Made by a program: the position numbers and the translations under genes | Notes under the pieces: model-generated | What the model saw: only the letters and a program-made list of their open reading frames with translations | Databases searched by the model: none | Told to the model about the DNA's origin: nothing | Shown here: one piece after another, positions 2,993 to 61,179 of the stretch | Numbering within the stretch: position 1 is the stretch's first letter | Layout of the letters: each line of letters begins with the position of its first letter | Origin: an uncultured Verrucomicrobiae bacterium | GTDB taxonomy: Bacteria; Verrucomicrobiota; Verrucomicrobiia; Limisphaerales; Palsa-1400 | Length of the DNA stretch: 64,000 nucleotides | Reading direction: 5' to 3' | Assembly (NCBI GenBank): GCA_963764165.1 | Contig: CAVXRD010000002.1 | Coordinates: 832,001-896,000, forward strand

Positions 2993-4669
2993 TTACCATC
3001 CGCCAGCCGTACCACCGGCGCGCGGGTCGGCAGCCCCCACAAAATTAGTGCCGCCCGGCCCTCGCGCCACAATTTGCGAAACTGCAATCGCGTTCAGCTC
3101 ACGGATCTTGTGGCCGCGGGCAGCCAGCGCGTTCTTCAAGTTTCCCGGGAGGCTTTTTTCCACGTCTAATTGATCAGGCGACCATTGATGGTGAATACGT
3201 GGCGTGGCCAGCGCTTCCTCCGGCGTTTTTCCTAGATCTAGAATGTCAATCAGCTCCTGAAAGACCGCGCTGATAATCGTCGGCCCGCCAGCGGCGCCTA
3301 ACGCAATGATCGGCTTGCCATCCTTCAGCACAATAGTCGGGCTCATGCTGGAAAGCGGACGCTTTCCTGGCGCGACCGCATTGGCCTCGCCGCCCACCAA
3401 CCCGAACGCATTCGGCACGCCCGGCTGCACTGAGAAGTCGTCCATTTGATTGTTCATCACAACGCCCGTGCCGGGAATCACGACCTTGGAGCCAAACGTT
3501 GTATTGATGGTGGCGGTGCAGGCTACCCAGTTGCCTTCCTCGTCGGCCACCGAGAAGTGCGTCGTGTGCTTTTTGAAAATGTCCGTTTGCGCATCCGGCG
3601 GCTCGCCGTGCGCCGCGACCTTGATCGTATGATTGACATCAATTTTCCGCGCCAGTTCCGCCGCGTAACTCTTGGCAATCAGCCCGCGCGGCACTGGCGC
3701 AAAAGCCGGATCGCCCAGCCAAAACGCGCGATCCGCAAACGCGAGTTTCATTGCTTCAGCAATAACGTGGAGCCGGGTCGTCTCATCCATCTTCGCGAGA
3801 TCAAAATTTTCCAGGATGTTCAAAATCTCCAGCACATGAACGCCGCCCGAGCTTGGCGGCGGAAAGGAGAGAACTTTGTATTGACGGTAAGTGGATTCCA
3901 CCGGCTCGCGAATTTCGGCGTGGTAACGGGCTAGATCGTCCGCGGTCATCACACCGCCGTTGGCCTGCATCCACTTTTGCAGGGCCTGCGCAAAGGGACC
4001 GCGATAAAACCAGCCAATTCCCTGCGCGGCGATGACGCGATAGGTGGCGGCAAGATCCGCTTCGCGCAATGTGCCGCCCATCTTTCGCGGCGCGCCGTTT
4101 GTAAAATAAACATCGGTTGACGATTTGAACTTCGCCATGTCGCGCGCCTCCGATTGCAGCGCCGAAGCGTAATTTTTTGTCAGAGGAAAGCCGCGATCCG
4201 CCAACGCGGCGGCGGGAAGAATCAAATCCGCGAGCTTCTTTTTGCCAAAGTGCTGGACGGCGTAATCGAATGCCGCCAGTTCGCCGGGAACTCCGCTGGC
4301 CAGCGCGCCCGTTTGGCTGAGTTCAATGTCGCCCTTGCCATTGCGGACGAACATATCGCGCGTGGCCGCGGCCGGGGCAGTCTCGCGCCCATCGACGCAG
4401 ATGTTCGAGCCGTTCGCCAGATGGATCAGCAGGAAGCAGCCGCCGCCGATGCCGGAATTGCGCGTGTCAACAACTCCAAGCGTCAAGCCCACCGCCACCG
4501 CCGCGTCAATCGCATTGCCGCCATTCTTGAGAACTTTCACGCCCGCCTCGGTCGCCACTGGATTGACAGACGCCACCATGCCGTGCGCGCCAGTCGCCGC
4601 TGAAATCGTATTGACGCTGCACAGCGCGAAAGCAAGCGCAACTGTGAAAGTTCGAATTAACGTTGTCAT
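2993..4669 (-). CDS. ggt: Gamma-glutamyltransferase
   Basis: GGNAIDAAVA, SGIGGG, DGRETAP, PPPSSGG, autocleavage HTTHFSV, NNQMDDFS, PGKRPLSSMSP; signal peptide. Confidence 0.95.
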   Translation of the reverse strand: MTTLIRTFTVALAFALCSVNTISAATGAHGMVASVNPVATEAGVKVLKNGGNAIDAAVAVGLTLGVVDTRNSGIGGGCFLLIHLANGSNICVDGRETAPAAATRDMFVRNGKGDIELSQTGALASGVPGELAAFDYAVQHFGKKKLADLILPAAALADRGFPLTKNYASALQSEARDMAKFKSSTDVYFTNGAPRKMGGTLREADLAATYRVIAAQGIGWFYRGPFAQALQKWMQANGGVMTADDLARYHAEIREPVESTYRQYKVLSFPPPSSGGVHVLEILNILENFDLAKMDETTRLHVIAEAMKLAFADRAFWLGDPAFAPVPRGLIAKSYAAELARKIDVNHTIKVAAHGEPPDAQTDIFKKHTTHFSVADEEGNWVACTATINTTFGSKVVIPGTGVVMNNQMDDFSVQPGVPNAFGLVGGEANAVAPGKRPLSSMSPTIVLKDGKPIIALGAAGGPTIISAVFQELIDILDLGKTPEEALATPRIHHQWSPDQLDVEKSLPGNLKNALAARGHKIRELNAIAVSQIVARGPGGTNFVGAADPRAGGTAGGW

Positions 4670-5880
4670 GTTTGTAATTCACCTTCCCAGCGGGCGACGA
4701 CTGCCGCCGCCAGGCAATTGCCAATAAGATTGATACAGGTCCGCGCCATGTCCAGAAATGCGTCGACTCCCAAAATCAAGGCGACGCCCTCCAGCGGCAG
4801 GCCAAACGTGGTGAGCGTGCCGGACAAAACCACCATGGCCGCGCGCGGCACGCCAGCCACGCCTTTGCTGGTAAGCATCAGCGTCAGCATCATGGGCAGC
4901 TCCTCCGCGAGCGCAAGGTGATGCCCTGCCGCCTGCGCCACAAAAACAGATGTCAGCGCGAGGTAAAGAGTAGAGCCATCCAGATTGAACGAGTATCCGG
5001 CGGGCATCACAAACGCGACGACACGCCGCGAAGCGCCAAATGCCTCCATGATTCGCAGCGCATCCGGCAAGGCCGCTTCCGAGCTTGCCGTGGAAAACGC
5101 CAGCAAGGCGGGCTCGCGAATGGCGCGGAAAAATTTCAGCACCGGAATCCGGGCCATCAGCATCACCGGCACGAGGACGAATAAAATAAACGCGGCCAGC
5201 GCGCCGTAAAGCGTCAACACGAGCTTTCCCAACTGAACGAGAACATGGGAGCCATTCTGCGCGAGCGTCGCGGCAATGGCGGCGCCCACCCCAATTGGCG
5301 CAAAATACATGACCAGAGCGGTGAATCGGAACATCACTTGCGAAACCGCCTCGAAGAAATCGACCACGATTTGCTTTTGCTTTGCCTGGATGCCGCTGAG
5401 CGCCAGGCCGAAAAAAACCGCGAACACCACCACTTGCAAAACATCATTGCGGGCGGCGGCATCGAAAAGGCTTTGCGGAGCGAGATGTTCGAGAATGAAA
5501 GCCCCGTTCACATGCGTGGCGGCAAATTGCTTCCCGGAATCGGCGGAAGCCGACAAATGAATTCCATTGCCCGGCTGGGCCAGATTTACCGCCGCCAATC
5601 CGACAGCCAAGGCCAGACAGGTGACAGCCTCAAAATAAATCAGCGCCTTGAGCGCCATGCGTCCGATGACTTTCATATCGGACGTATGCCCCGCGATGCC
5701 AACAACCAGCGTGCTGAAAATAAGCGGGACCACGACGCACTTGATGAGGTGGAGAAAAAGCGTCGAGAGCACCTGAAGTTGCTTCGCCTGTTCCGGGAAA
5801 AGCTCCCCCACAGCAACGCCCACCACCATCGCGATCATAATCCAATGGGTCAGCGTCATTCGTTTGACAAACGTCGGCAT
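4666..5880 (-). CDS. Dicarboxylate/amino acid:cation symporter (GltP/DctA family)
   Basis: Multi-TM protein with FSTASSEAALP, GYSFNLDGS, SKGVAGVPRA and DMARTCINLIGN motifs. Confidence 0.92.
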   Translation of the reverse strand: MPTFVKRMTLTHWIMIAMVVGVAVGELFPEQAKQLQVLSTLFLHLIKCVVVPLIFSTLVVGIAGHTSDMKVIGRMALKALIYFEAVTCLALAVGLAAVNLAQPGNGIHLSASADSGKQFAATHVNGAFILEHLAPQSLFDAAARNDVLQVVVFAVFFGLALSGIQAKQKQIVVDFFEAVSQVMFRFTALVMYFAPIGVGAAIAATLAQNGSHVLVQLGKLVLTLYGALAAFILFVLVPVMLMARIPVLKFFRAIREPALLAFSTASSEAALPDALRIMEAFGASRRVVAFVMPAGYSFNLDGSTLYLALTSVFVAQAAGHHLALAEELPMMLTLMLTSKGVAGVPRAAMVVLSGTLTTFGLPLEGVALILGVDAFLDMARTCINLIGNCLAAAVVARWEGELQT

Positions 5881-5990
5881 TGCGCGGGCAGACTACTGTT
5901 TCGAGCCGCGGGTGCGCGACAGAATTCTTCACAAGGCATACCCTTCTCCTCGATCGCCGGCGCCATGGCCTTTTCCCCTTCGTGCCCTTT

Positions 5991-7697
5991 GCAGTGCTAT
6001 TTCGGAAAACTCTTCATTTTTGGCAAAGTTTTAGGCGGCGAGTTTGGTCAATTTGTCCACGTCCGCTTTGCGGGCGGTCAAGAGCGCAGTAATGGTGGTG
6101 CGCCCTTTCTCGGTGACAACATAGCGGTGGGTGCCGCTGACTTTGGCGATCAAGCCATGCGCTCGCAGGAGCCGCAGTCGGCGTCCAATCCAGCCCATTC
6201 TGCGTTTGAGTTCGCGGTCATCGCACCGGCTGGGAAAATAGGCCTGCCGAATGTCTCGACTGCGAAAGCCGTTGAGGGCGTACTCTCCCTGGCTGACCAT
6301 TTCCAAAAGGCGTCCGTCCTCCGGGGCCCAAGGATTGAGGGCGCGGTAGCGCCGCCCCGCCTGCCGCAGGGGCTTGCAGCATTTTTCAACCCATTGGAAC
6401 AGCGGCACCGTTCCGCTGACGGATCCCAACGCCTGCAAATAACGTTCATTGGCCCGGTGAGAGATTTCTTTGCGCCGTTTCAGGTCGGCCAGCCCCCGGC
6501 GCAATGTCAGCCAGCGTTTGGCCTCCTTGGGCCGGCCTTCCGGTTTGCGATAAACTTTAAATTCCTCCGGGTGCGTCACCGTCGTTTCGATCCGCAAAAC
6601 CGAGCCCTGCTTGTCGTAAAATTTGATCGAGTTGCCGTTAAGACTGTGCTTGACCCGCACGCCCTCCGGCCGCCGTTTGGTGTCGCTGGTGATTTCGCCC
6701 TCAAACTGGCCGTACACCCTGCCCGTGCTGATGGGAACGTATCGGCCCAAAAACCTCATCACGTCCGCGCTGGAAAAGGAACTGATGGCATGGTGAACCA
6801 GGCTGGGATAAAGCCGGGCCAGGCTCTCGGGCTCCTTGAAAATGACATCGGTGGCATATTCGGTGTCCGAAGCGCTCCAATAGTATTTGAGGTTCAGCGG
6901 CTGGCAAATCGACCGGTGCAGGGGATGAACCTCATTGAGCAGCCGGCCCAGCTCCTTGGGCCAGTCAGTTTGCAGTTGCTGGTCCAGCAGGCCTTGAGCG
7001 CGCCCCATATCGGCCACCCGCAAAAAGGTGTTCTCCTTCTTTTGATAGGCAATGCCTGCCTGATCCAACTGCTTTCCCAGCCAATGCCGGCCATTGAGGC
7101 AGATATTAATCTGGAAGGGAAACCAGGTTTGCAGGCGCAGGTGCATGAAGCCAAACTTGGAATGCTCGAAATAGAAATAAAGATGGCTGCACTTGCGCTG
7201 CTGAACCTTCACCTCAATGTGTTTGGTTTGGGGGTTTCCGACGACTTGAAAGGACATGCAGGGTTCCGTGCAATTGAGAATGGCGATCAGTCCCTCGGTG
7301 ATTTTATCGCGGGCGGCAATCTTGCGCGCCACCTCCTCCTTGCTGGTTTGGCTGGAGGGGACGAAAAGAAAAGGCCGCCCGGCTGTTTGTGCCAGGGCCC
7401 TGGCTTTGTCTTTGACCGCTTTGGTGGTCCGTTCGACCAACTGGCTGAAATCCTTGATCAGAATGTGGCAGGCGTTCAAGTAGGCCTCCATCACCTGGGG
7501 GCCGTACAACTGGCGCAGCGTCCCGCGCAATCGCAGGCGATCAAAGCCCGAAAGAACTCCTAGAATTGAGGAAGCATGTTTGTGTACAAAAGAGTTGGAA
7601 GCGCCGTCATGGGTAAGCGGTTTGTTTTGCATACATCCAATCTTACCCAGACCGGACGGCGCTTTCCTCTTATTTTTGGTTGCGGCTTTGCCGCGCT
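5991..7697 (-). mobile_element. Insertion element copy 1 (about 1.7 kb, no TIR/TSD), single putative transposase gene
   Basis: 5989-7700 is repeated almost exactly at 9659-11371 with different flanks. Boundaries are ambiguous by a few bp because both flanks read TT|GTG. Confidence 0.85.
6031..7632 (-). CDS. Putative transposase (533 aa) with Rep_trans/CRI-like motifs and C-terminal winged HTH
   Basis: Only ORF of a duplicated element. Motifs EYATD (about 258-262) and IKFYDKQGSVLRIE (Y339); C-terminal LRLLRAHGLIAKVSGTHRYVVT wHTH. Confidence 0.75.
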   Translation of the reverse strand: MQNKPLTHDGASNSFVHKHASSILGVLSGFDRLRLRGTLRQLYGPQVMEAYLNACHILIKDFSQLVERTTKAVKDKARALAQTAGRPFLFVPSSQTSKEEVARKIAARDKITEGLIAILNCTEPCMSFQVVGNPQTKHIEVKVQQRKCSHLYFYFEHSKFGFMHLRLQTWFPFQINICLNGRHWLGKQLDQAGIAYQKKENTFLRVADMGRAQGLLDQQLQTDWPKELGRLLNEVHPLHRSICQPLNLKYYWSASDTEYATDVIFKEPESLARLYPSLVHHAISSFSSADVMRFLGRYVPISTGRVYGQFEGEITSDTKRRPEGVRVKHSLNGNSIKFYDKQGSVLRIETTVTHPEEFKVYRKPEGRPKEAKRWLTLRRGLADLKRRKEISHRANERYLQALGSVSGTVPLFQWVEKCCKPLRQAGRRYRALNPWAPEDGRLLEMVSQGEYALNGFRSRDIRQAYFPSRCDDRELKRRMGWIGRRLRLLRAHGLIAKVSGTHRYVVTEKGRTTITALLTARKADVDKLTKLAA

Positions 7698-8049
7698 GTG
7701 TCCTTGTTGTTCAATTCCCTTGCCGGTCCCGGCTGGCCCCGGGCAAGGACCCCGGGCGCCGCGCCGCCGGCGAATTCAAACCAGACTTTTTAAAACAAGG
7801 GCGCAAAGGACACGAAGAGGAGAAGGCGTTAAAGCCTGCTATCTGGGCCTCGCTGCGTTCTCCGAGCGCGATTGCGTTGAAGCCACGATGAAGCCAGCGT
7901 GATCAGGCATAAGGTCCATCCCGCTCATCCTGTGCATCCCGTCAAAATTTTGCCCAAAATGCGGACTTTTTCGAGATGGCACCGCAAAGCATTTGCCGAT
8001 TCTTTTACATGCCTGCCGCACCCCCAAAATAAAAAATCGACAGCGGCCG

Positions 8050-8430
8050 TTACGGATTGCTGCTCTCAATATCCTGGCCAAACACGATTGCCACGTTGTT
8101 GACATCGCGCACGCTAAATTCTCGAATCCCGTAGGGCTGATCTGTTGGCTCCGTTGCCGCTTCCCCGCCGCGACTGACTATTTCCCGGTGGCAGGCATCG
8201 ACGTCCTTCACCCACTGAAACAAGTGGACGCCGCTCGGGTTTCCGGCACTCTTGACGAAGTGAATGGCGGAATTGTCGCGCCAAACCACCGCGTATGTCT
8301 CGTCGCCGAAATCCCACGTAAAACCAAGGACATCACGATAGAAGGCGGCCGTTGCCTTGACGTCCGCGACATGCAGCACCGGGGCGCCTTGGATGAATTG
8401 AACAGGATTGGATGATGGCAATGATGGCAT
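8050..8430 (-). CDS. VOC/glyoxalase-bleomycin resistance family protein
   Basis: PVLHVADVKATAAFYRDVLGF...PTDQPYGIREFSVRDVNN pattern. Confidence 0.85.
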   Translation of the reverse strand: MPSLPSSNPVQFIQGAPVLHVADVKATAAFYRDVLGFTWDFGDETYAVVWRDNSAIHFVKSAGNPSGVHLFQWVKDVDACHREIVSRGGEAATEPTDQPYGIREFSVRDVNNVAIVFGQDIESSNP

Positions 8431-9187
8431 TTTTCCTATATGGTCATGACCACCATCGGGAGCCTGTGCGCCAGATTAATGGATTTAACACGATTCAACA
8501 GTATCATCGGCTTGGGATAGTTATCGAGGCCGACTCCTCAGACAACGATAATATTTCCCTCATCGACAGCAGGACGGTCCTGGGGCCGATCCGCGTCGGG
8601 CAAAAGCGATTCTCTTTGCGGCCTCGTCTCCTTGTTGTTTTCTTGAGGTCCTCGGCGGCCTGGCGCGCATCGCTTTGGCGGGGCCAACCGGAAACAGCAA
8701 ATGGATTGGACAGAAGCACACGAAGGCCACGAAGTGGAAAAGGCGTTGACGCCAGCTATCTAGGCCAAACCCTGCGTCCTCCGCGCGATGGCGCTTAAAG
8801 CAACGATGAAACCAAATGCCGGACGGAAAAACTTTCGCGCAGAGAAGATGAGTGCGCAGAGGAACTCAAAGACAAATCCGCACTCATCTGAAAACAGCGC
8901 GGATCACGTTTTTTGGATGCGGCTCTGCCGCACCGTGCCCTTGCGCCCTCCCGTTTAAATCCCCCCTCCCTCGGATTCAAAAGCGGACGCCAAGGCCCAA
9001 GGGCGTAAAGACTTTGCCGATTCACATTTATGCCTCTTCCGGGACCTGCAGGAAAACATGTGATTATGTTGGTCTGACCTTGCGGGCGCAATTTTGAGGA
9101 CAATAGGTCGGCGACTATTCGCTAGTCGGGGGCTAACTGCCTCTGATCCGTCAGCGTCGGGTGATTCAAGCGCGCTGAATGGTCAAC

Positions 9188-9331
9188 TCACATAGAGCCA
9201 AAGCCCGCCTTGCCCTCCAACACCATCAGGAAAAAAACAATTGCAACCGGAATTCCGACAATCAGAATCGCGCCGATAACGAGCAACAAAACCGCCCGCG
9301 TTAGGCGATATGGCTTTTCCTCACACCTCAT
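9188..9331 (-). CDS. Possible 47-aa single-TM small protein
   Basis: My translation MRCEEKPYRLTRAVLLLVIGAILIVGIPVAIVFFLMVLEGKAGFGSM; one long hydrophobic helix; no homology evidence. Confidence 0.35.
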   Translation of the reverse strand: MRCEEKPYRLTRAVLLLVIGAILIVGIPVAIVFFLMVLEGKAGFGSM

Positions 9332-9660
9332 AAAACGCAAGCATGCCTGAGATGTTTGCCGCAGTCAAAGAGATCGAAGATCATCAATACGGTTGCTCGG
9401 GCAGAAGCGTGGCAATTCTTTCATCTAAGTCACGGGCGCATCCCGGTTTTTGACAAGCTTGGAAACGAAGTACGCCAGGCATGCCGACAGTGATCGCTCT
9501 CGCCCCGTCCCGCCGCGGCGGGAGGAGAGAGAAGGAGAGAGGGCCCTTTGCAATCCACACTGCGGCCTCACCTCAATTTGGCAGGGCGGACCTGCGTGTC
9601 CGCCCAAACCTTCATCCCAAATCTCACCCGCATTCACACACCTGCCGCGCCCTCATCCTT

Positions 9661-11368
9661 GCAGTGCTATTTCGGAAAACTCTTCATTTTTGGCAAAGTT
9701 TTAGGCGGCGAGTTTGGTCAATTTGTCCACGTCCGCTTTGCGGGCGGTCAAGAGCGCAGTAATGGTGGTGCGCCCTTTCTCGGTGACAACATAGCGGTGG
9801 GTGCCGCTGACTTTGGCGATCAAGCCATGCGCTCGCAGGAGCCGCAGTCGGCGTCCAATCCAGCCCATTCTGCGTTTGAGTTCGCGGTCATCGCACCGGC
9901 TGGGAAAATAGGCCTGCCGAATGTCTCGACTGCGAAAGCCGTTGAGGGCGTACTCTCCCTGGCTGACCATTTCCAAAAGGCGTCCGTCCTCCGGGGCCCA
10001 AGGATTGAGGGCGCGGTAGCGCCGCCCCGCCTGCCGCAGGGGCTTGCAGCATTTTTCAACCCATTGGAACAGCGGCACCGTTCCGCTGACGGATCCCAAC
10101 GCCTGCAAATAACGTTCATTGGCCCGGTGAGAGATTTCTTTGCGCCGTTTCAGGTCGGCCAGCCCCCGGCGCAATGTCAGCCAGCGTTTGGCCTCCTTGG
10201 GCCGGCCTTCCGGTTTGCGATAAACTTTAAATTCCTCCGGGTGCGTCACCGTCGTTTCGATCCGCAAAACCGAGCCCTGCTTGTCGTAAAATTTGATCGA
10301 GTTGCCGTTAAGACTGTGCTTGACCCGCACGCCCTCCGGCCGCCGTTTGGTGTCGCTGGTGATTTCGCCCTCAAACTGGCCTGTACACCCTGCCCGTGCT
10401 GATGGGAACGTATCGGCCCAAAAACCTCATCACGTCCGCGCTGGAAAAGGAACTGATGGCATGGTGAACCAGGCTGGGATAAAGCCGGGCCAGGCTCTCG
10501 GGCTCCTTGAAAATGACATCGGTGGCATATTCGGTGTCCGAAGCGCTCCAATAGTATTTGAGGTTCAGCGGCTGGCAAATCGACCGGTGCAGGGGATGAA
10601 CCTCATTGAGCAGCCGGCCCAGCTCCTTGGGCCAGTCAGTTTGCAGTTGCTGGTCCAGCAGGCCTTGAGCGCGCCCCATATCGGCCACCCGCAAAAAGGT
10701 GTTCTCCTTCTTTTGATAGGCAATGCCTGCCTGATCCAACTGCTTTCCCAGCCAATGCCGGCCATTGAGGCAGATATTAATCTGGAAGGGAAACCAGGTT
10801 TGCAGGCGCAGGTGCATGAAGCCAAACTTGGAATGCTCGAAATAGAAATAAAGATGGCTGCACTTGCGCTGCTGAACCTTCACCTCAATGTGTTTGGTTT
10901 GGGGGTTTCCGACGACTTGAAAGGACATGCAGGGTTCCGTGCAATTGAGAATGGCGATCAGTCCCTCGGTGATTTTATCGCGGGCGGCAATCTTGCGCGC
11001 CACCTCCTCCTTGCTGGTTTGGCTGGAGGGGACGAAAAGAAAAGGCCGCCCGGCTGTTTGTGCCAGGGCCCTGGCTTTGTCTTTGACCGCTTTGGTGGTC
11101 CGTTCGACCAACTGGCTGAAATCCTTGATCAGAATGTGGCAGGCGTTCAAGTAGGCCTCCATCACCTGGGGGCCGTACAACTGGCGCAGCGTCCCGCGCA
11201 ATCGCAGGCGATCAAAGCCCGAAAGAACTCCTAGAATTGAGGAAGCATGTTTGTGTACAAAAGAGTTGGAAGCGCCGTCATGGGTAAGCGGTTTGTTTTG
11301 CATACATCCAATCTTACCCAGACCGGACGGCGCTTTCCTCTTATTTTTGGTTGCGGCTTTGCCGCGCT
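9661..11368 (-). mobile_element. Insertion element copy 2
   Basis: Near-identical to 5991-7697; the one difference I noticed is an extra T near 10382. Confidence 0.85.
9701..11303 (-). pseudogene. Frameshifted copy of the 533-aa transposase
   Basis: aactggcctgtacacc versus aactggccgtacacc in copy 1 splits the gene into 310-aa and 209-aa ORFs. Could be an assembly error. Confidence 0.8.
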
Positions 11369-11509
11369 GTGGCCTTGCGCCCTTGCGTTAAATATTCCCT
11401 CTCCCTCGAACTCAGAGGGGAATTTAACGCCAAGACGCCGAGGCCCCAGGGCGCAAAGATTTCGCCGAGTGCAGGAGTATTTTGAGGTCAAATCCGTCAA
11501 ATGAATAAC

Positions 11510-21570: not shown

Positions 21571-21601
21571 TAATTGCAATCCACCTAGCCCGCCTCTTAA
21601 A

Positions 21602-21700
21602 GGTAGCAACGCCTCGCCGAGGCGTCCGGGGACTTTCACAAATCCGAACGTGTTCGAAAAACGCCATAGCCTCGGACGCCTCGGCGGGGCGGCCCTGCCT
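21602..21700. repeat. GTAG-type REP pair (REPIN-like)
   Basis: ggtagcaacgcctcgccgaggcgtcc facing ggacgcctcggcggggcggccctgcc; the same palindrome family recurs at 49209-49231. Confidence 0.65.
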
Positions 21701-21725
21701 TGAAATCTAGGCGCGCTGCCTCTCG

Positions 21726-24572
21726 TTATGGCAAGCCAAGCCGGAAAAAGACGGCGGGCTGGGCCTGGATATTCGTCTCGATAAAGATGCCGGTGCCGAC
21801 GGAAGTCGCCGCGTTGGTGGCGATGGTTTGCCAAATCACGGGCGGGCTCAGGTTTGTCGTGGATTGCAGCACGTAGTTTGTCCCCGGCCCTCCGGTGAAT
21901 TGGACGATGAGGGTGTTCGTGTTAAATAGTGTCAGGGTCAGCGGCGCGAGCGGCGGCGGCGGTGGGGGCGGCGGCATCAGGACCGTTACGTCGATCACCG
22001 CGCTGGTCACACTCCCAAACGGCCCTGTCACCACTAAATCGTAGGCTCCCGCTTCGTTGGTTGTCAGTGGCGCGAGTGGCAGACTTGGGCCGAAGGCCGG
22101 GATTTCACGGATGCGGCTGTCGCCTGTGTCCGCAATGTAAAGGCTGCCGAACATGTCCGCCGCAACGCCGTAAACGTTGCGCAATCGCGAATTCGTCGCG
22201 GGACCGCCGTCGCCCGAGTACCCGAAACCCGCATTGCCCGCCACGGTTGAAATGATTCCGCTTGGCGTCACTTCGCGGACGTGCTCCGTGCCGTCAGCGA
22301 TATACAAATTGCCTAGGCCGTCGGCGGAAATCGACTGTGGCGCTTCGAAGAAGGCGTTCGTCGCCGCTGCTCCATCCCCGTAATAACCGGCCGCGCCATG
22401 GCCAGCCACCGTCAGAACGACACCGTCGGGTGAAATTCGGCGGACGCGGATGTTTCCGGCATCCGCGACAAAAAGATTTCCCAGCACATCCAAAGCGACG
22501 TCCGACGGATGCGAAAAGCTGGCGGCCAGCGCCGGTCCGCCATCGCCGAAGTAGCCGTTGGTGCCTGTGCCGGCAATGGTGGTAATGATTCCGTTCGTGC
22601 CGACTTTGCGAATCCGGTTGTTGCCCATGTCGGCGATGAAGACGTTGCCAGATTGATCAATCGCCAAGCCACTCGGGTCGGCGAGATCCGCGTTTGTCGC
22701 AGCGCCACCGTCGCCGAAAAAGCCGTTTGTTCCGTCACCTGCGAATGTTGAGATGACACCGTTGGTGCTGACCACGCGGACGCGGTCGTTGGCCTCATCC
22801 GCAATATAAATATTGCCAGCGGGATCGATCGCCACAGCAGCGGGATTGAAAAGGCTGGCATTCGTGGCGGGGCCGCCGTCGCCGGAAAATCCACCGTCGC
22901 CGTTGCCCGCAATCGTCGTGATTATTCCTGCGGAGTCCACTTTCCGAATCCGGTTATTGGCGGAATCGGCGATGTAGAAATTTCCCATTTGATCGACGGC
23001 AACGGAACCGGCGTAAATCTCCGCGTTGGTGGCGAGGCCGCCGTCGCCTGATTCGCCATTGGTTCCATTCCCTGCCACGGTAATAATTGGAACTGGGATG
23101 TTGCTGCCATTCAGTTGCCATTGAAATTGCAGCGGCCCCATGTTGCTGATCGAGACGCTCAATAGCACGTTGCTGCCCGCAAAATTGGTCACGCTTTCCG
23201 ATTCTCCAAGAAGCACCGGCGGTGTTCCAAGCAGCAAAAATGCATCCGCGCTGGTCACTTTGCCATACGGGCTGGTCACGACCACATCATAGGCGCCGAC
23301 ATTGGATGGCGAGGCATTCGAGATTGAAAATGCCGGGCCTTGCGCCACCACTTCGCGGACACGCGAATTGCCAGCGTCCGCGATGAAAATATCACCGCGG
23401 GAATCAACCGCGGCGTCCATGGGCGCGCTTAATTCCGCCAGCGCGGCGGGTCCGCCGTCGCCAAAATCGCCATTCGTTCCAACACCCACCGCCGTTGTCA
23501 GCAAGCCGGTCGGCGAAAGTTTCAAAACGCATTCGTTTGAGGCATCAGCGATGTAAAGACGGCCGACCGCATCCAGAGCCAGCCCTTCCGGCAAACCGAG
23601 AGCCGCGTTTGTGGCGGCGATTCCATTGGTAATCGGCCCGTTTGTTCCGGTTCCGGCAATTGTCGAAATGACTCCATTCGTGCCGACTTTTCGGACGCGA
23701 TAGTTCTGTGTGTCCGAAATGTAAAGATTGCCAACTGAATCCACGGCCAGCCCGCCCGGGTGCGATAGGTTCGCATTGGTCGCCGGGCCGCCATCGCCGA
23801 AAAAGCCGTTTGTTCCCGTGCCCGCCACCGTTGAAATGATGCCGTTGGTGCCAATTTTGCGAATGCGGTTGTTGAACGAATCCGCCACGTAAAGGGCGTT
23901 CGACGGGCCGATCACGACTGCCGTCGGATAGTAGAGCGCAGCGTTGGTCGCTTTGCCGCCGTCGCCGGAAAATCCGCTCGTGTTTGTTCCCGCGACTGTT
24001 GAAATGATGCCGTTTACCGCCACTTTCCGAATGCGGGAGTTTGTGTAATCCGCGATGAAAAGATTTCCCGACGAGTCAACCGTTACGAAGGCGGGATTTA
24101 CAGCCGTGTTCGTCGCCTGGACGCCGTCGCCGCTGTAATTCGTTTTGCCATTGCCGGCCACGGTGGTGATGATGCCGTTTGTGCCGACCTTGCGGACGAC
24201 TTCGTCGGCAAAATCGGCGATGAACAAATTATTCGAGGCGTCCACCGCAACGCCCCGGGGAAAGCTGAGCGCCGCGTTCGTTGCGGGGGAGCCGTTGCCT
24301 GAATAGCCGTTGGAGCCGTTTCCGGCCCCAGTGAAAATCAATGCCGGAATATTGGAGCCATTGAATTGCCATTGATAGTAAAACGGCCCGATTCCAGCGG
24401 CGGCGACCGTAAAAGTGCCGTTGGAGCCCGGCAGCAACGCCAGATCGGCGGGCTGCTGAATGATGGTGACCGGCGTTTGAGCGAGCACAACGGCGGGGAA
24501 AAGGGGAGCCATGGCCGCGAGAGCGGCCGTAAATAGAAGAGAATTCCTCCTGCAGTATCGTTTCGTTTCCAT
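21726..24572 (-). CDS. Secreted NHL-repeat protein with Ig-like domains
   Basis: Signal peptide; many IIT/STxAGxGxxGFxGDGGPATNAxL..P..VAVD..GNL(F/Y)IAD repeats; YQWQFNG Ig segments. Confidence 0.9.
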   Translation of the reverse strand: METKRYCRRNSLLFTAALAAMAPLFPAVVLAQTPVTIIQQPADLALLPGSNGTFTVAAAGIGPFYYQWQFNGSNIPALIFTGAGNGSNGYSGNGSPATNAALSFPRGVAVDASNNLFIADFADEVVRKVGTNGIITTVAGNGKTNYSGDGVQATNTAVNPAFVTVDSSGNLFIADYTNSRIRKVAVNGIISTVAGTNTSGFSGDGGKATNAALYYPTAVVIGPSNALYVADSFNNRIRKIGTNGIISTVAGTGTNGFFGDGGPATNANLSHPGGLAVDSVGNLYISDTQNYRVRKVGTNGVISTIAGTGTNGPITNGIAATNAALGLPEGLALDAVGRLYIADASNECVLKLSPTGLLTTAVGVGTNGDFGDGGPAALAELSAPMDAAVDSRGDIFIADAGNSRVREVVAQGPAFSISNASPSNVGAYDVVVTSPYGKVTSADAFLLLGTPPVLLGESESVTNFAGSNVLLSVSISNMGPLQFQWQLNGSNIPVPIITVAGNGTNGESGDGGLATNAEIYAGSVAVDQMGNFYIADSANNRIRKVDSAGIITTIAGNGDGGFSGDGGPATNASLFNPAAVAIDPAGNIYIADEANDRVRVVSTNGVISTFAGDGTNGFFGDGGAATNADLADPSGLAIDQSGNVFIADMGNNRIRKVGTNGIITTIAGTGTNGYFGDGGPALAASFSHPSDVALDVLGNLFVADAGNIRVRRISPDGVVLTVAGHGAAGYYGDGAAATNAFFEAPQSISADGLGNLYIADGTEHVREVTPSGIISTVAGNAGFGYSGDGGPATNSRLRNVYGVAADMFGSLYIADTGDSRIREIPAFGPSLPLAPLTTNEAGAYDLVVTGPFGSVTSAVIDVTVLMPPPPPPPPLAPLTLTLFNTNTLIVQFTGGPGTNYVLQSTTNLSPPVIWQTIATNAATSVGTGIFIETNIQAQPAVFFRLGLP

Positions 24573-44570: not shown

Positions 44571-45393
44571 GATCGCAGACTCAGCCGTCACTCCCGGCCA
44601 TATCGAAAATTCCCCGTGTCAGTTGAACTTTCGACAAAGAAACGCCGCACCGGTGTCAGGCGTTTGAATGGCTGTTCCCGGACGGGAACCATTGGCAAAC
44701 GCTGTTGGGTGCGAGCCAACGGGGTAATGGCGGCTGAGTCTGAAACCCGAAGATACTCATTTTAGCACGGGAAGTTGGCGCGCTGTGCGCGGCTGCTGTG
44801 GATTGGCCGCGTGGCGGCGACACGGGTCAAAATCGGCGGGGCGCTTTTTCCAGGATGCAAAAGCGGAGGTTCGTTCCGCAGGAAACCGTCGTCTCGTGCT
44901 CCGCGTACTCACACGGAGTCGTTGGGCGAATTCGCCCGCGCTCGTGTGTCCGATAGGACTCTCTATGAACCCGTCCCCCCAACGTGTCGGCGGTTAAAGG
45001 ACGATAGGACTGGCGCGGCCGACTTCGCGCTTTTTGGTGAGAGACGACGGTTAGGAGGAACGAATCCCGATAGCCACCTGGAAAAAGCGCGAAGTCGGGC
45101 GTTAGCCGACGACACGTTGGGGAAGTCGTAAGGCCCCGTTGAGCCGTAAAACTCTCGTCGGCGCGATCCGCGCCCCTACATACCATGTATGTAGCCCCTC
45201 GTTCCCGGCACTCATCAAGGACAATACCGCATCGGCGCGATTGGTCATGGTGTAAACTAAATGGGCAGACCGCCGATGCCGGAATGTCAAGCAAAAGGAG
45301 TATTGATTGGAGCCATGTTCGCGCCCAGCGAACCGAAATAGGTGGAGCAAGCCGCGCGACGTGCGCAGCAAGTAACATCCGAATGGGTTAAAA

Positions 45394-49402: not shown

Positions 49403-50722
49403 GTGTTTATGCGAACATCGACATTTGAATTGAGAGCGTTCTTGGTGATCTTGTCACTTGCCCCGTCAGCCATGCATGGCGCGGGCGCCTGGCTTAGCAT
49501 GGGGTCGGGCTTGAATGGCCACGTGAGCGCCCTTGCCGTGTCGGGAGACATCCTGTATGTGGGCGGGTCGTTTACGACGGCGGGTGGCAACGCAGCCAAT
49601 CATATCGCGCAATGGAATGGGACCAATTGGGCGCCGCTGGGATCCGGTGTGAGCGGGGGCAGCTTTGGCACGCATGTGGACGCGATTGCGATCTCGGGAG
49701 GCACCCTTTATGCAGGCGGCTCATTTACGACCGCGGGCGGCAATGCGGCCAATTACATTGCGCAATGGAACGGAACCAATTGGTTGCCGCTGGCGTCCGG
49801 CATGAGTGACCGCGTGGAGGCGATCGCGGTTTCGGGCCAGACGCTCTACGCCGGAGGAGTGTTCCATTCGGCGGGCGGCAAAGTGGCTTACTACATTGCG
49901 CAATGGAACGGCAGCACATGGTTTCCGCTGGGCTCGGGCTCCGATTTGAACAACGAAGTCAACGCGCTGGGGGCGTCAGACAGCACGCTTTATGTCGGCG
50001 GCTATTTCACGATGGCAGGCACGAACGCGCCCGGCAGCATCGTGCAATGGGATGGGACGTCATGGCTGGCCCTCGGCTCGGGAGTAAATGGCTCCGTCAG
50101 CGCGCTGGCGATGGCGGGCAGCACTCTTTACGCAGCGGGAGATTTCACGACTGCGGGCGGCAATCCGGCCAATTGCATCGCGCAATGGAACGGCAACAGT
50201 TGGGCAGCTCTGGGATCGGGTGTCAACGGTCCAGTGAGCGCGCTGGCGGTATCCGGCAACACAGTCTACGCGGGTGGCTCATTCACCAATGCCGGCGGGA
50301 ATGCTGCCAATTACATAGCGAAATGGGACGGAACCAATTGGTCGCCGTTGGGGGCGGGCATGGGTGGTGGCTCTTCCACTGAGGTGAATGCGCTGGCGGT
50401 TTCGGGAGGAACCCTTTTTGCGGGCGGCAATTTCCTGACCGCAGGGACAAACGCGGCCGACTACGCGGCTGAATTCGATATCACGGCCTCCCCTCTTGCC
50501 ATCATTGCCACGAACATCGCATTCGGGTTTAGCAACGGGTTTTTTGGTTTTAATGTCTCCGGGCCTCCCGGTTCCAACGTCGTCATTCAGGCGTCCACAG
50601 ATTTGAATCTGGCGAACTGGGTCGCGCTGCAAACCAACCTGCTGGATGGAAACGGGCTGGCCTATTTTTCGGATTCCAACTCCGCCACTCCACAAAAATA
50701 CTACCGCGCCGTGATGCCGTGA
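49403..50722 (+). CDS. Secreted beta-propeller repeat protein
   Basis: About seven VxALAVSGxxLYAGGxFTTAGGxxANxIAQWNGxxW repeats; signal peptide. Confidence 0.85.
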   Translation: MFMRTSTFELRAFLVILSLAPSAMHGAGAWLSMGSGLNGHVSALAVSGDILYVGGSFTTAGGNAANHIAQWNGTNWAPLGSGVSGGSFGTHVDAIAISGGTLYAGGSFTTAGGNAANYIAQWNGTNWLPLASGMSDRVEAIAVSGQTLYAGGVFHSAGGKVAYYIAQWNGSTWFPLGSGSDLNNEVNALGASDSTLYVGGYFTMAGTNAPGSIVQWDGTSWLALGSGVNGSVSALAMAGSTLYAAGDFTTAGGNPANCIAQWNGNSWAALGSGVNGPVSALAVSGNTVYAGGSFTNAGGNAANYIAKWDGTNWSPLGAGMGGGSSTEVNALAVSGGTLFAGGNFLTAGTNAADYAAEFDITASPLAIIATNIAFGFSNGFFGFNVSGPPGSNVVIQASTDLNLANWVALQTNLLDGNGLAYFSDSNSATPQKYYRAVMP

Positions 50723-59004: not shown

Positions 59005-61179
59005 ATGAAACACAAATTGCTTAAGCTACATGGAAACTTCGTCGTTGCCGCACTCTTGCTGTGGGCACTCGCCTTTCAAACCGCCTCCGGGCAGGTCCTG
59101 CCGCCCTCAACGCAGCCTTACGGATTCAGCTACTCCGATTGGGCGGCGCGATGGTGGCAATGGACGCTGGAACAGTCCACTAACCACATGAATCTAGTCA
59201 GCGAACCCGTGTCCGGGCCAGTCCGGTTTCTGGCCGGGGCGGCGGGCACCGAAACGGTGACCAATAGCGTGACTGTTCCGGCCGGCACGTCCCTGTTTTT
59301 CCCGATCCTCAGCATCTGGGTCGATAACTCGGGCTGCCCGGATTTTTCGAGCAACACCCTTGCGGAATTGCAGGCGCAAGCGGATGGCGAATGGAGTTCC
59401 GTGACCGTTACGACCTGCATTATCGATGGCGTTCCTGTCAGCGGCCTCGACGACCCGCAGACCAGCGATTACTTCGTCCAAGCCACCCCGTTCAGTTACA
59501 CCACGGCCGCGACTAACAGCGTTGTCAACAGCATCTACGGCGAACCATGCTTGCCCGCGGGAACGACCATTGATCCCGCGGTGGCCGACGGTGTGTTTCT
59601 AATGCTATCGCCATTGGGGCAAGGGACGCACACTGTTGAGTTCATCGGCGCCGCCGGGCCGACCAATGCGCCGTTCGTGGCCCTTGACCTGACTTATGAA
59701 ATCACCGTGCCGTCCCCCGCCGGAGTTTTTCCTCCAGGCGGCACGCCATTTGGCAAAAGCTATGCGGATTGGGCGGCGGCTTGGTGGGAGTGGACCCTTT
59801 CGCAATCCACCAACCAGATTCAATCGGTGAGCACCCCTGTGGCGGGCGTTGCATTTCTCGCCGGCGCCGCCAATAGCGACACCGAGACACGCAACATCAC
59901 CGTCTCCTCCGGCGACGCGTTATTCTTTCCGATTCTAAGCGCATGGGTCGACAACTCCGGCTGCCCCACCTTCACGACGAACTCCCTGGAGGAATTGCAG
60001 GCGGAAGCGGATGGAGATTGGAGCGCCGTGACGGTGACCACTTGCACGGTTGACGGCGTGCCCGTCAGCGGATTGGGTGACCCCCAAACGAGCGGTTACT
60101 TCACCCAAGCTGCTCCGTTCACGTATACGACGGCATTGAGCAACAGCGTGGTGAATGACATTTACGGCGAACCTTGCATTCCCGGCGGCACGACGATCGG
60201 GCCTGCGGTAGCCGACGGCGTTTTTATGATGCTGGCGCCGCTGGCGCCCGGACAGCACACGATTGAATTCGTGGGGATCGTCGGCCCGACGAATGCGCCT
60301 TATCTTCTCGAAGATCTAACATACCAGATCACGGTGGTGCCGGACACAGGCGTGTATTCGGCGCGATCCTTGCCCGCCGGCAAGAGCTACGCGGATTGGT
60401 CCGCGGCCTGGTGGCAATGGACCCTTTCCCAGTCCACCAACCAGACAGCATGGGTGAGCAGTCCCATGGCAGGTTCTGTTGCGTTTCTGGCCGGCGCGGC
60501 TGGCACCGACACTGAAACTCGCGACGTCACCATTCCTGCCGGCGTCTCGTTGTTCTTCCCCATCTTGAGCATTTGGGTTGATAATTCCGGCTGTCCCGAT
60601 TTCACCACCAACACACTGGATCAACTGGAGGCGGAAGCCCAGGAGGACTGGAGCGGCGTAACCGAGACTGCCTGCACGATTGATGGAGTGCCCGTTCCAG
60701 GCTTGGAGAATCCTCAATATTCGCCTTACCTGACGCAGTCCCTGCCCTTCAGTTACACGACCGCCCTCACGAACAGCGTGCTCGGCCCCGTGTATGGAGA
60801 GCCTTGCATTCCCGGCAGCACGACCATCGGCCCGGCAGTGGCGGAAGGCGTCTATCTCATGGTGCCACCCATGACAGCGGGCAATCATACAATTAACTTC
60901 ACCGGCATCGTCGGCCCCGCCACCGCTCCTTACCTTGCCGTAAATCTAACTTATAACATCGCTGCGCAGCCACCCGCATTGAGCATTTCAACGCTAGGTT
61001 CTGGCGTCGAGCTTTCGTGGCCGCAGTCGCAGAGCAGCTACATTGTTGAAACGGCGACGAATCTAGCTTCACCGGCCTGGTCGCCCTTTGGCGCGCCTGT
61101 CCTGGCATCGAACGGGGTCCTGCAAGTGACTGTTCCCACCGGCAGCGGAAGCCAATACTTTCGTCTGCGTGGGCAATAA
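59005..61179 (+). CDS. Secreted protein with three tandem about 205-aa uncharacterised domains
   Basis: Three copies of SYxDWxAxWWxWTLxQSTN..FLAG..LFFPILSxWVDNSGCP; signal peptide. Confidence 0.8.
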   Translation: MKHKLLKLHGNFVVAALLLWALAFQTASGQVLPPSTQPYGFSYSDWAARWWQWTLEQSTNHMNLVSEPVSGPVRFLAGAAGTETVTNSVTVPAGTSLFFPILSIWVDNSGCPDFSSNTLAELQAQADGEWSSVTVTTCIIDGVPVSGLDDPQTSDYFVQATPFSYTTAATNSVVNSIYGEPCLPAGTTIDPAVADGVFLMLSPLGQGTHTVEFIGAAGPTNAPFVALDLTYEITVPSPAGVFPPGGTPFGKSYADWAAAWWEWTLSQSTNQIQSVSTPVAGVAFLAGAANSDTETRNITVSSGDALFFPILSAWVDNSGCPTFTTNSLEELQAEADGDWSAVTVTTCTVDGVPVSGLGDPQTSGYFTQAAPFTYTTALSNSVVNDIYGEPCIPGGTTIGPAVADGVFMMLAPLAPGQHTIEFVGIVGPTNAPYLLEDLTYQITVVPDTGVYSARSLPAGKSYADWSAAWWQWTLSQSTNQTAWVSSPMAGSVAFLAGAAGTDTETRDVTIPAGVSLFFPILSIWVDNSGCPDFTTNTLDQLEAEAQEDWSGVTETACTIDGVPVPGLENPQYSPYLTQSLPFSYTTALTNSVLGPVYGEPCIPGSTTIGPAVAEGVYLMVPPMTAGNHTINFTGIVGPATAPYLAVNLTYNIAAQPPALSISTLGSGVELSWPQSQSSYIVETATNLASPAWSPFGAPVLASNGVLQVTVPTGSGSQYFRLRGQ

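Follow-up and report, generated by a model that had tools for sequence, protein, structure and literature searches.

What kind of enzyme moves a 1.7-kb element that occurs in near-identical copies and has neither terminal inverted repeats (TIRs) nor a target duplication? This question was raised by a 64,000-nt stretch of DNA (the window; GCA_963764165.1, contig CAVXRD010000002.1, positions 832,001 to 896,000) from an uncultured Verrucomicrobiae bacterium, whose genome is designated G000. An earlier note, made from the sequence alone, had proposed a non-HUH tyrosine-nickase transposon with a Rep_trans/CRI-like initiator, moving by a single-stranded DNA (ssDNA)/rolling-circle route. The element is a real, recently active insertion sequence (IS) with a single gene, and it comes from a large unclassified family. 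Its enzyme is very probably a TBP-fold transposase related to Rep proteins. It is also likely, with somewhat less certainty, that this enzyme is a tyrosine transesterase related to Rep_trans initiators and that it transposes the element as a single strand. The earlier proposal was supported by the analysis, from which we infer nicking by Y339 and the identity of the moving strand; the rolling-circle mode is probable.

Copies of the element

Two copies of the element were present in the window, and their ends correct the previous overall bounds of 5989 to 11371. The features are as follows.

5993-7699, minus strand: element copy 1, intact, 1707 bp; ends set by analogy with the exact G199 empty site and the homologue junctions described below.
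6031-7632, minus strand: putative transposase open reading frame (ORF) of copy 1, 533 aa.
7678-7699, minus strand: left (upstream) end, with five bases, a GCGGC-loop-GCCGC hairpin and then AACC; probable binding site or origin end.
5993-6032, minus strand: right (downstream) end, with an AT-rich imperfect stem and then TAGCACT, cut before target RC.
9663-11370, minus strand: element copy 2, frameshifted, 1708 bp; one extra base at 10382 interrupts the reading frame after codon 307.

The inserted base at 10382 is the only internal difference between the two copies, and the resulting frameshift had been absent from the earlier note. Its description of two near-identical copies with different flanks was accurate for the window, but the genome total is eight near-full copies, which are 99.8-100% identical and spread over four of the five contigs. 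All eight left flanks and all eight right flanks were distinct. Because all 16 flanks differ, the copies are independent insertions and not the assembly duplication that had been named as a possible explanation.

The 533-aa ORF is intact in five of the eight copies, and the other three carry the identical one-base insertion (window 10382; G000:C2:2224337-2226044; G000:C3:154721-156428). One of these three has an additional private single-nucleotide polymorphism (SNP). The shared frameshift reflects either a defective sub-lineage mobilised in trans or a systematic read error. As previously described, no TIRs were found in the element by a repeat search of the window, and no target duplication was observed at its insertions.

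Ends and target junctions

The hairpin just inside the upstream end was confirmed, and its GCGGC/GCCGC stem folds on both strands (z -2.1 and -2.2; equalled by 8 and 5 of 200 shuffles). The right-end stem was weak in the single sequence (z +0.6). In the alignment, 76.8% of it was paired, with two-sided changes at 7/7 pairs, and none of 500 shuffles scored as high; its register was taken from the query fold and a slid control and is thus partly fitted. Rfam gave no match, and a sigma-70 promoter was not detected in the vicinity of the left end.

The junction register in G000 is ambiguous because the element begins with AC. It was set by analogy with the genome G199, whose relative is 40% identical to the query. 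One G199 copy lies inside a DDE-transposase element, and the two flanks of that element abut at 22 other places in G199, which represent empty sites. The empty-site sequence, read base by base at one place, is gctC^ACtg; relative to it, the insertion neither duplicated nor removed any base. The intact left junctions in G199 were C^TC (4/4) and the right junctions T^AC (5/5), and a further left end lacked 9 nt. Applied to G000, this register gives left junctions of C^ACAGC in all eight copies and right junctions of CACT^GC in six and CACT^AC in two. By this analogy, the G000 junction is C^RC in gene orientation, and the TT^GTG junction proposed before was 2 nt off. The register is supported by the matching repeat context genome-wide, which reads GC 15 times and AC twice among 22 sites.

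Homologue ends were surveyed in 80 metagenomic loci, 74 of which included enough upstream DNA. The left hairpin motif was present in 65 of these 74 loci. The base before the element was C in 59 of 61 distinct flanks, with the upstream consensus CGCAAAGRC. The right-end pattern was found in 56 of 68 loci; this pattern itself imposes T^RC, and those columns are therefore not independent evidence. Both ends surrounded one gene in 51 loci, at a distance of 1695-1869 bp.

The targets were mostly tandem units of REP-like (repetitive extragenic palindrome-like) repeats of the CGCAAAG or CACGGAT type. The target pattern occurred 28 times in G000, compared to 6 and 3 times in two simulations. REP-like repeats are not required as a target, as the G199 insertion shows. 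A distant Burkholderia-type clade showed CTA-based junctions.

Among loci L085-L164, the left start CCAGA paired with the right end (T/C)AGTGG(T/C), mostly at CACGGAT targets, and the left starts ACAGC, TTAGC and ATAGC paired with the right end TAGCACT. This correspondence of end types could reflect guide-like pairing or shared descent only. L097, L104 and L118 (56-75% identity to the query) had a common structured right flank, in which a T-tract/A-tract stem is followed by a second stem; this is apparently another conserved non-coding target.

Conserved residues of the protein

Conservation was measured over 154 aligned sequences with identity down to 21%. P172, E258, Y339, R347 and E349 were invariant in all 154 sequences, D31 was present in 149, K341 in 146 and D262 in 122. 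Y152, Y154 and Y250 were conserved at 95-99%. EYATD at 258 and Y339 within IKFYDK (at 336) were found where they had been reported, and VLRIE lies at 345. The proposal had been made dependent on the conservation of Y339, which was complete in this alignment.

D31, E258, Y339, R347 and E349 are collinear with RepC D46/D142/Y191/R212/E214. In RepDE, the metal is bound by D46, D142 and E214, and the nucleophile is Y191 (PMC4797284, PMC13107129). From the Rep motif YxKxxE, the YxK part is present (Y339, K341) on strand 334-341, and the final E is absent. Of the arrangement RxDxAxD...YxK...RxE that the earlier note gave for Rep_trans and gpII-like initiators, YxK, RxE and their order were recovered, but the R of RxD is missing and the metal-position D is E258.

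Motif profiles were built from RepC, M13 gpII, the protein at L168 and a CRI-like alignment. They ranked D31, Y339 and E349 first and E258 third. With the catalytic residue left out of the profiles, the ranks were 1/524 for D31, 1/525 for Y339, 1/525 for E349 and 8/522 for E258. The background rank-1 rate was 5/340 D/E/Y windows, one of which was the true RepC Y191. The loci L169:763-2112 and L168:859-2202 encode chromosomal Rep_trans/CRI-like proteins from the same phylum, and the L169 family (62 homologues) retains the complete RxDxxxD, YxK and RxE set.

Pfam, NCBIfam and PHROGs gave no informative family for the 533-aa protein, only weak winged helix-turn-helix (wHTH) matches. The PDB sequence search returned nothing for the protein and two weak wHTH matches for the profile, and the ESM Atlas contained only unnamed clusters, with no usable named match for residues 140-405. 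The hidden Markov models (HMMs) of Rep_trans (PF02486) and Phage_CRI (PF05144) matched neither the query nor 29 homologues, and a six-frame search of G000 with PF02486 gave no match. DUF7845 (PF25227) showed no Pfam match and an hhalign probability of 0.2 against a shallow 5-sequence alignment. DEDD/Tnp_20 (IS110) domains were not matched in Pfam or NCBIfam. In agreement with the previous reading of the ORF, no HUH motif was conserved; the sole HxH (residues 17-19) is unconserved, and neither Y1_Tnp nor Y2_Tnp matched.

Predicted fold of the protein

An AlphaFold2 model was obtained from a 122-sequence alignment, with a predicted local distance difference test (pLDDT) value of 92.5 and a predicted template modelling score (pTM) of 0.77. 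The model comprises a TBP-like catalytic domain (residues ~10-406) and a MarR-like winged helix (~409-533). D31, E258, Y339 and E349 are all placed on beta-strands. The C-terminal wHTH noticed in the sequence was confirmed by both profile and structural matches.

In a wide structural search over 48,161 chains, 48 of the top 50 rows matched the C-terminal winged helix. The remaining two were TBP, near-whole over residues 2-408 (Z 8.0 and 7.7); in this unbiased search, TBP 1mp9 reached Z 8.0 with 181/189 residues aligned and a root-mean-square deviation (rmsd) of 4.7. A second look was restricted to Foldseek's top 1000, and the best 50 rows were considered. The N-terminal domain was covered by 32 of these 50 rows, which were 31 TBP-type chains, some of them identified by title and length alone, and RepSTK1 (Z 6.8, 189/268 aligned, rmsd 4.4). 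These Z values fall where the search tool warns of a mere common arrangement. RepSTK1 was rank 10 in the PDB Foldseek search and had the top probability among the listed rows (0.92, E 0.021). In BFVD, A0A345MNV4 was matched (E 6.9e-4, probability 0.97); this is named an inovirus Rep_trans protein and was used to place Rep-Arvir in PMC13107129.

No RNase H, tyrosine-recombinase or serine-recombinase fold occurred among the listed structural rows, in which the N-terminal rows were TBP-fold. One HUH relaxase, TraI 8a1c, was a weak Foldseek match (E 0.06, probability 0.30). The structural matches carry weight because they are mutually consistent and agree with the motif order. Among the rows listed, the predicted fold resembles TBP-fold proteins and RepSTK1, at moderate Z, rather than an RNase H or HUH transposase. 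The earlier label of a Rep_trans/CRI-like initiator was upheld by the predicted fold and motif order, but not by the Rep_trans and Phage_CRI HMMs.

The same TBP-fold domain could also be a transposase in which D31, E258 and E349 perform DDE-like hydrolysis and direct transesterification, with Y339 as a structural residue. The acidic triad is as conserved as Y339, and so nearly are Y152, Y154 and Y250. However, the element differs from those of DDE transposases in having neither TIRs nor target duplication, and among the tyrosines only Y339 is fully invariant, lies in the YxK strand and holds rank 1 to Rep motif III. Furthermore, the D/D/E triad of Rep_trans serves a tyrosine nucleophile (PMC4797284, PMC5714925). 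We consider DDE-like chemistry unlikely.

Proposed mechanism of transposition

Single-strand transfer by the TBP-fold tyrosine enzyme is suggested because the insertion is precise and the junction dinucleotides never mix. In G199, the left TC came from the element in 4/4 and the right AC from the target in 5/5; in G000, the left was AC in 8/8 and the right GC in 6/8. A staggered two-strand exchange should mix the dinucleotides, and therefore the unmixed junctions count for single-strand transfer.

In the proposed pathway, D31, E258 and E349 would bind a divalent metal, and Y339 would nick the DNA and remain attached to its 5' phosphate. Guided by the winged helix and the left hairpin, the enzyme would sit on the gene-sense strand, immediately 3' of the nick, and host replication would then displace this strand. 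The strand would be nicked again at the right end (T^RC), and once free it would be joined into a target nicked at C^RC. The choice of the sense strand and of the left end as the origin follows an analogy: in pT181 and M13 the nick sites, placed by motif, fall on the sense strand as well, that of pT181 within the 5' end of repC and that of M13 ahead of gene II by ~230 nt. RepD binds 3' of its nick, at a site whose centre is 23 bp away (PMC4797284).

Within the single-strand model, replicative rolling-circle transposition with a left-end origin is slightly preferred over IS608-style peel-and-paste from existing ssDNA. An IS608-type peel-and-paste route would account equally well for the hairpin at each end and for a cut that falls outside the loop. 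No circle joint was found in four low-similarity contig-only run sets, which were uninformative, and the sequencing-run listing contained no RNA run with the element and DNA runs at a small share only.

Several results weigh against a Rep-related enzyme, the chosen register or the rolling-circle route. Regarding the fold, PDB Foldseek gave no match at E <= 0.001, the structural scores were middling with TBP slightly higher than RepSTK1, and none of the tools returned a residue-by-residue overlay of Y339 and the Rep tyrosine. At the residue level, D262 was replaced by T or N in 32/154 sequences, and the RxD arginine, which PMC4797284 describes as strictly conserved in Rep_trans, is absent, with Q, E or D at position 256. 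The motif windows had been picked after the alignment had been seen. Whole-protein profile comparison with the CRI-like alignment, Rep-Arvir, RepC and L168 found nothing, and a core-only profile scored 19.9 compared to 12.6 +/- 2.9 for shuffles, with a maximum of 22. At the ends, the junction here lies 5 nt 5' of the hairpin, whereas that of pT181 is within the hairpin loop. Two paralogues of the target of copy 1 showed AC where the chosen register expects GC, and the in-silico register test was weak (4.61 at shift 0 and 3.22-4.45 at other shifts). Moreover, neither a circle junction nor one-ended capture of flanking DNA was demonstrated.

Alternatively, the same enzyme could be a two-strand site-specific recombinase with a 2-bp core, similar to IS110 or serine recombinases, that acts via a double-stranded circle. 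Such an exchange would be in line with the identical di- or trinucleotide at both junctions in G122 and the Burkholderia clade, and with the target consensus that spans both sides of the cut. However, the left TC and right AC of G199 differ and were unmixed over nine junctions, and the GC of the target appeared at no G000 left junction. Two-strand recombination is thus also improbable.

Gene-less derivatives and proposed action in trans

Two gene-less derivatives lie next to or near copy 1 in the window.

8575-8936, minus strand: gene-less derivative consisting of a left end, whose hairpin lies near 8915-8931, and REP-like filler; a right end was not detected. Over 368 nt it shares 75% identity with a ~420-bp derivative on contig C3, which is complete.
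7700-7989, plus strand: decayed gene-less derivative in the opposite orientation, with a right-end-like motif near 7941-7983 at its end; copy 1 is inserted into it.

Gene-less elements with both ends were found on contig C3 of G000 (~420 bp), in G034 (141 and 174 bp) and in G021 (~132 bp). G122 contained 43 matches of a 176-bp gene-less element, the ends of which resemble those of its own autonomous copy. G000 also showed several left ends on their own, truncated at their 3' sides in a nested fashion (an example is at ~8936 of the window), and a few solo right ends (one at ~7983). Elements also insert at or beside older left junctions (L113, L115 and L211). These arrangements suggest that the two short ends are enough in cis, with the protein working in trans. 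A circle or one-ended transposition is no more than hinted at by the nested solo left ends and by a single fusion of a right end to a left end.

In G122 (G122:C1:1-432, L230), at least three near-identical 176-bp derivatives were arranged head to tail and ran off the contig end. Since the junctions within this array are unlike the one at its left end, it was not taken for a rolling-circle multimer.

Alternatively, the ORF might be a passenger, such as a regulator or an accessory nuclease like TnpB, while a host HUH enzyme (Y1/RAYT) moves the element through its hairpin ends and REP-like targets. G000 has 10 PF01797 matches, the targets are REP-like, gene-less derivatives exist, and one homologue is labelled 'ArsR family transcriptional regulator' in the database. 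On the other side, the 51 loci of 1695-1869 bp enclose this gene and leave no room for anything else, the G122 derivatives carry the end types of the autonomous copy of their own genome, and even homologues of only 21% identity keep the active-site-like residues unchanged. A passenger role is very unlikely.

Distribution of the family

The protein family comprised at least 7,801 members among 8,000 scored candidates, with 6,879 clusters at 50% identity, and a second clade gave at least 8,000 among 8,000 scored candidates. It occurs in Verrucomicrobiota-type genomes and as far afield as Burkholderia, Rhodococcus and Mycobacterium plasmids. A scan of genome contigs with one protein as the query returned a single locus. 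Among relatives it was patchy, occurring in 8/61 and 11/401 genomes (G000 included in both).

The Rep-like fold and the hairpin would also fit an integrated rolling-circle plasmid or inovirus replicon, as in Rep-Arvir (PMC13107129). However, 50,697 phage records and an IMG/VR scan of viral contigs yielded no match for the protein, and the 17 plasmid records with a match were each 140 kb or larger. The element also has no integrase or second gene and occupies eight chromosomal sites, which makes a replicon highly improbable. On a Mycobacterium riyadhense plasmid (L053:2239-5659), two divergent members lie head to tail, 142 bp apart, beside IS4 copies and a PE-family gene.

An assembly artefact is refuted for the element itself and has a negligible probability: the insertion common to three of the eight copies could be a systematic read error, but the 16 flanks all differ, one copy has a SNP of its own, and the architecture recurs across dozens of independent assemblies.

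Neighbouring features in the window

Copy 1 sits between a membrane-transporter-like ORF (4666-5880; a dicarboxylate symporter by eye) and a glyoxalase-family gene (8050-8430), both of which are undisrupted. Further intergenic inverted-repeat elements with arms of 28-35 nt were located at 505-651, 2824-2982, 21597-21704 and 44977-45122. Coding-type tandem repeats with periods of ~168, 138-153 and 627-630 nt were located at 22179-24302, 49528-50415 and 59122-60783, respectively, and probably encode repeat proteins.

Relation to known systems

The Rep_trans (PF02486)/MOB_T group includes pT181 RepC, pC221 RepD, RepSTK1 (4cij), the inovirus Reps, M13 gpII and ICEBs1 NicK. The enzyme shares with it the predicted TBP-like fold and the N-terminal D, strand-borne YxK and RxE in the same order, it has a candidate acidic triad on strands at collinear positions, and the element likewise has a hairpin beside the cut. 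It differs in the lack of an HMM or whole-profile match, in xxE instead of RxD, in the 227 aa rather than 96 aa between the first two acidic residues, and in the fused winged helix. Furthermore, the gene is solo in a multicopy chromosomal IS, not in a replicon or integrative and conjugative element (ICE), and the cut is outside the hairpin loop.

Rep-Arvir (DUF7845/PF25227) has the same combination of a TBP-fold catalytic domain and a MarR-like winged helix. The same BFVD matches (A0A345MNV4 and A0A2N9QVX7) were obtained, and homologues are likewise mis-annotated as transcriptional regulators (PMC13107129). In contrast, Rep-Arvir is described there as serving replication in archaeal viruses, plasmids and ICEs, with the origin hairpin downstream of the gene, and no profile match to it was found. 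The enzyme was therefore not filed under Rep_trans or Rep-Arvir despite the likeness, because the HMM and role tests failed.

IS91/ISCR and Helitron also have one gene, no TIRs, no target duplication, dissimilar ends and a short target (PMC5714925). These elements use HUH enzymes with a helix-borne tyrosine, whereas no HUH motif is conserved here and Y339 is on a strand. IS200/IS605 (Y1 HUH) and REP/RAYT systems are cut a few bases beyond the subterminal hairpins that they carry at either end, insert precisely, have gene-less derivatives and are associated with REP-like sequences, and the element resembles them in all of these. It differs in its 533-aa TBP-fold protein, compared to a Y1 HUH enzyme of roughly 150 aa, and its ORF had no PF01797 match. 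Because the HUH test failed, the element was not filed under IS91 or IS200/IS605 despite the similar mode of working.

Novelty and significance

A full-text literature search, with subscription journals, supplements and ISfinder outside its scope, found no description of such a transposon, and a deposited but unclassified member is therefore possible. In the passages cited here from PMC5714925 and PMC13107129, transposons that move by rolling circles or as single strands rely on HUH enzymes, and Rep_trans appears only in plasmid, phage and ICE replication or transfer. The element may represent a new class of bacterial transposon. On balance, we lean towards an unrecognised class of transposase chemistry, in which a non-HUH TBP-fold tyrosine nickase from Rep_trans/Rep-Arvir initiators drives scarless rolling-circle transposition into host REP-like repeats and powers thousands of unannotated IS lineages together with abundant gene-less hairpin elements. 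New here are an empty site resolved to the base, the repeat target with its C^RC cut, the reasoning on the strand and the description of non-autonomous derivatives.

With two short ends and one gene, the system is directly testable, and a scar-free, sequence-targeted insertion enzyme could serve as a tool. Members of the family are labelled 'hypothetical' or 'ArsR regulator' and are therefore missed by IS counts. The family offers a source for some abundant intergenic repeats, such as the 176-bp derivative of G122. If the proposed mechanism is true, the single-strand or rolling-circle lifestyle would have arisen a further time, independently, with a TBP-fold tyrosine transposase.

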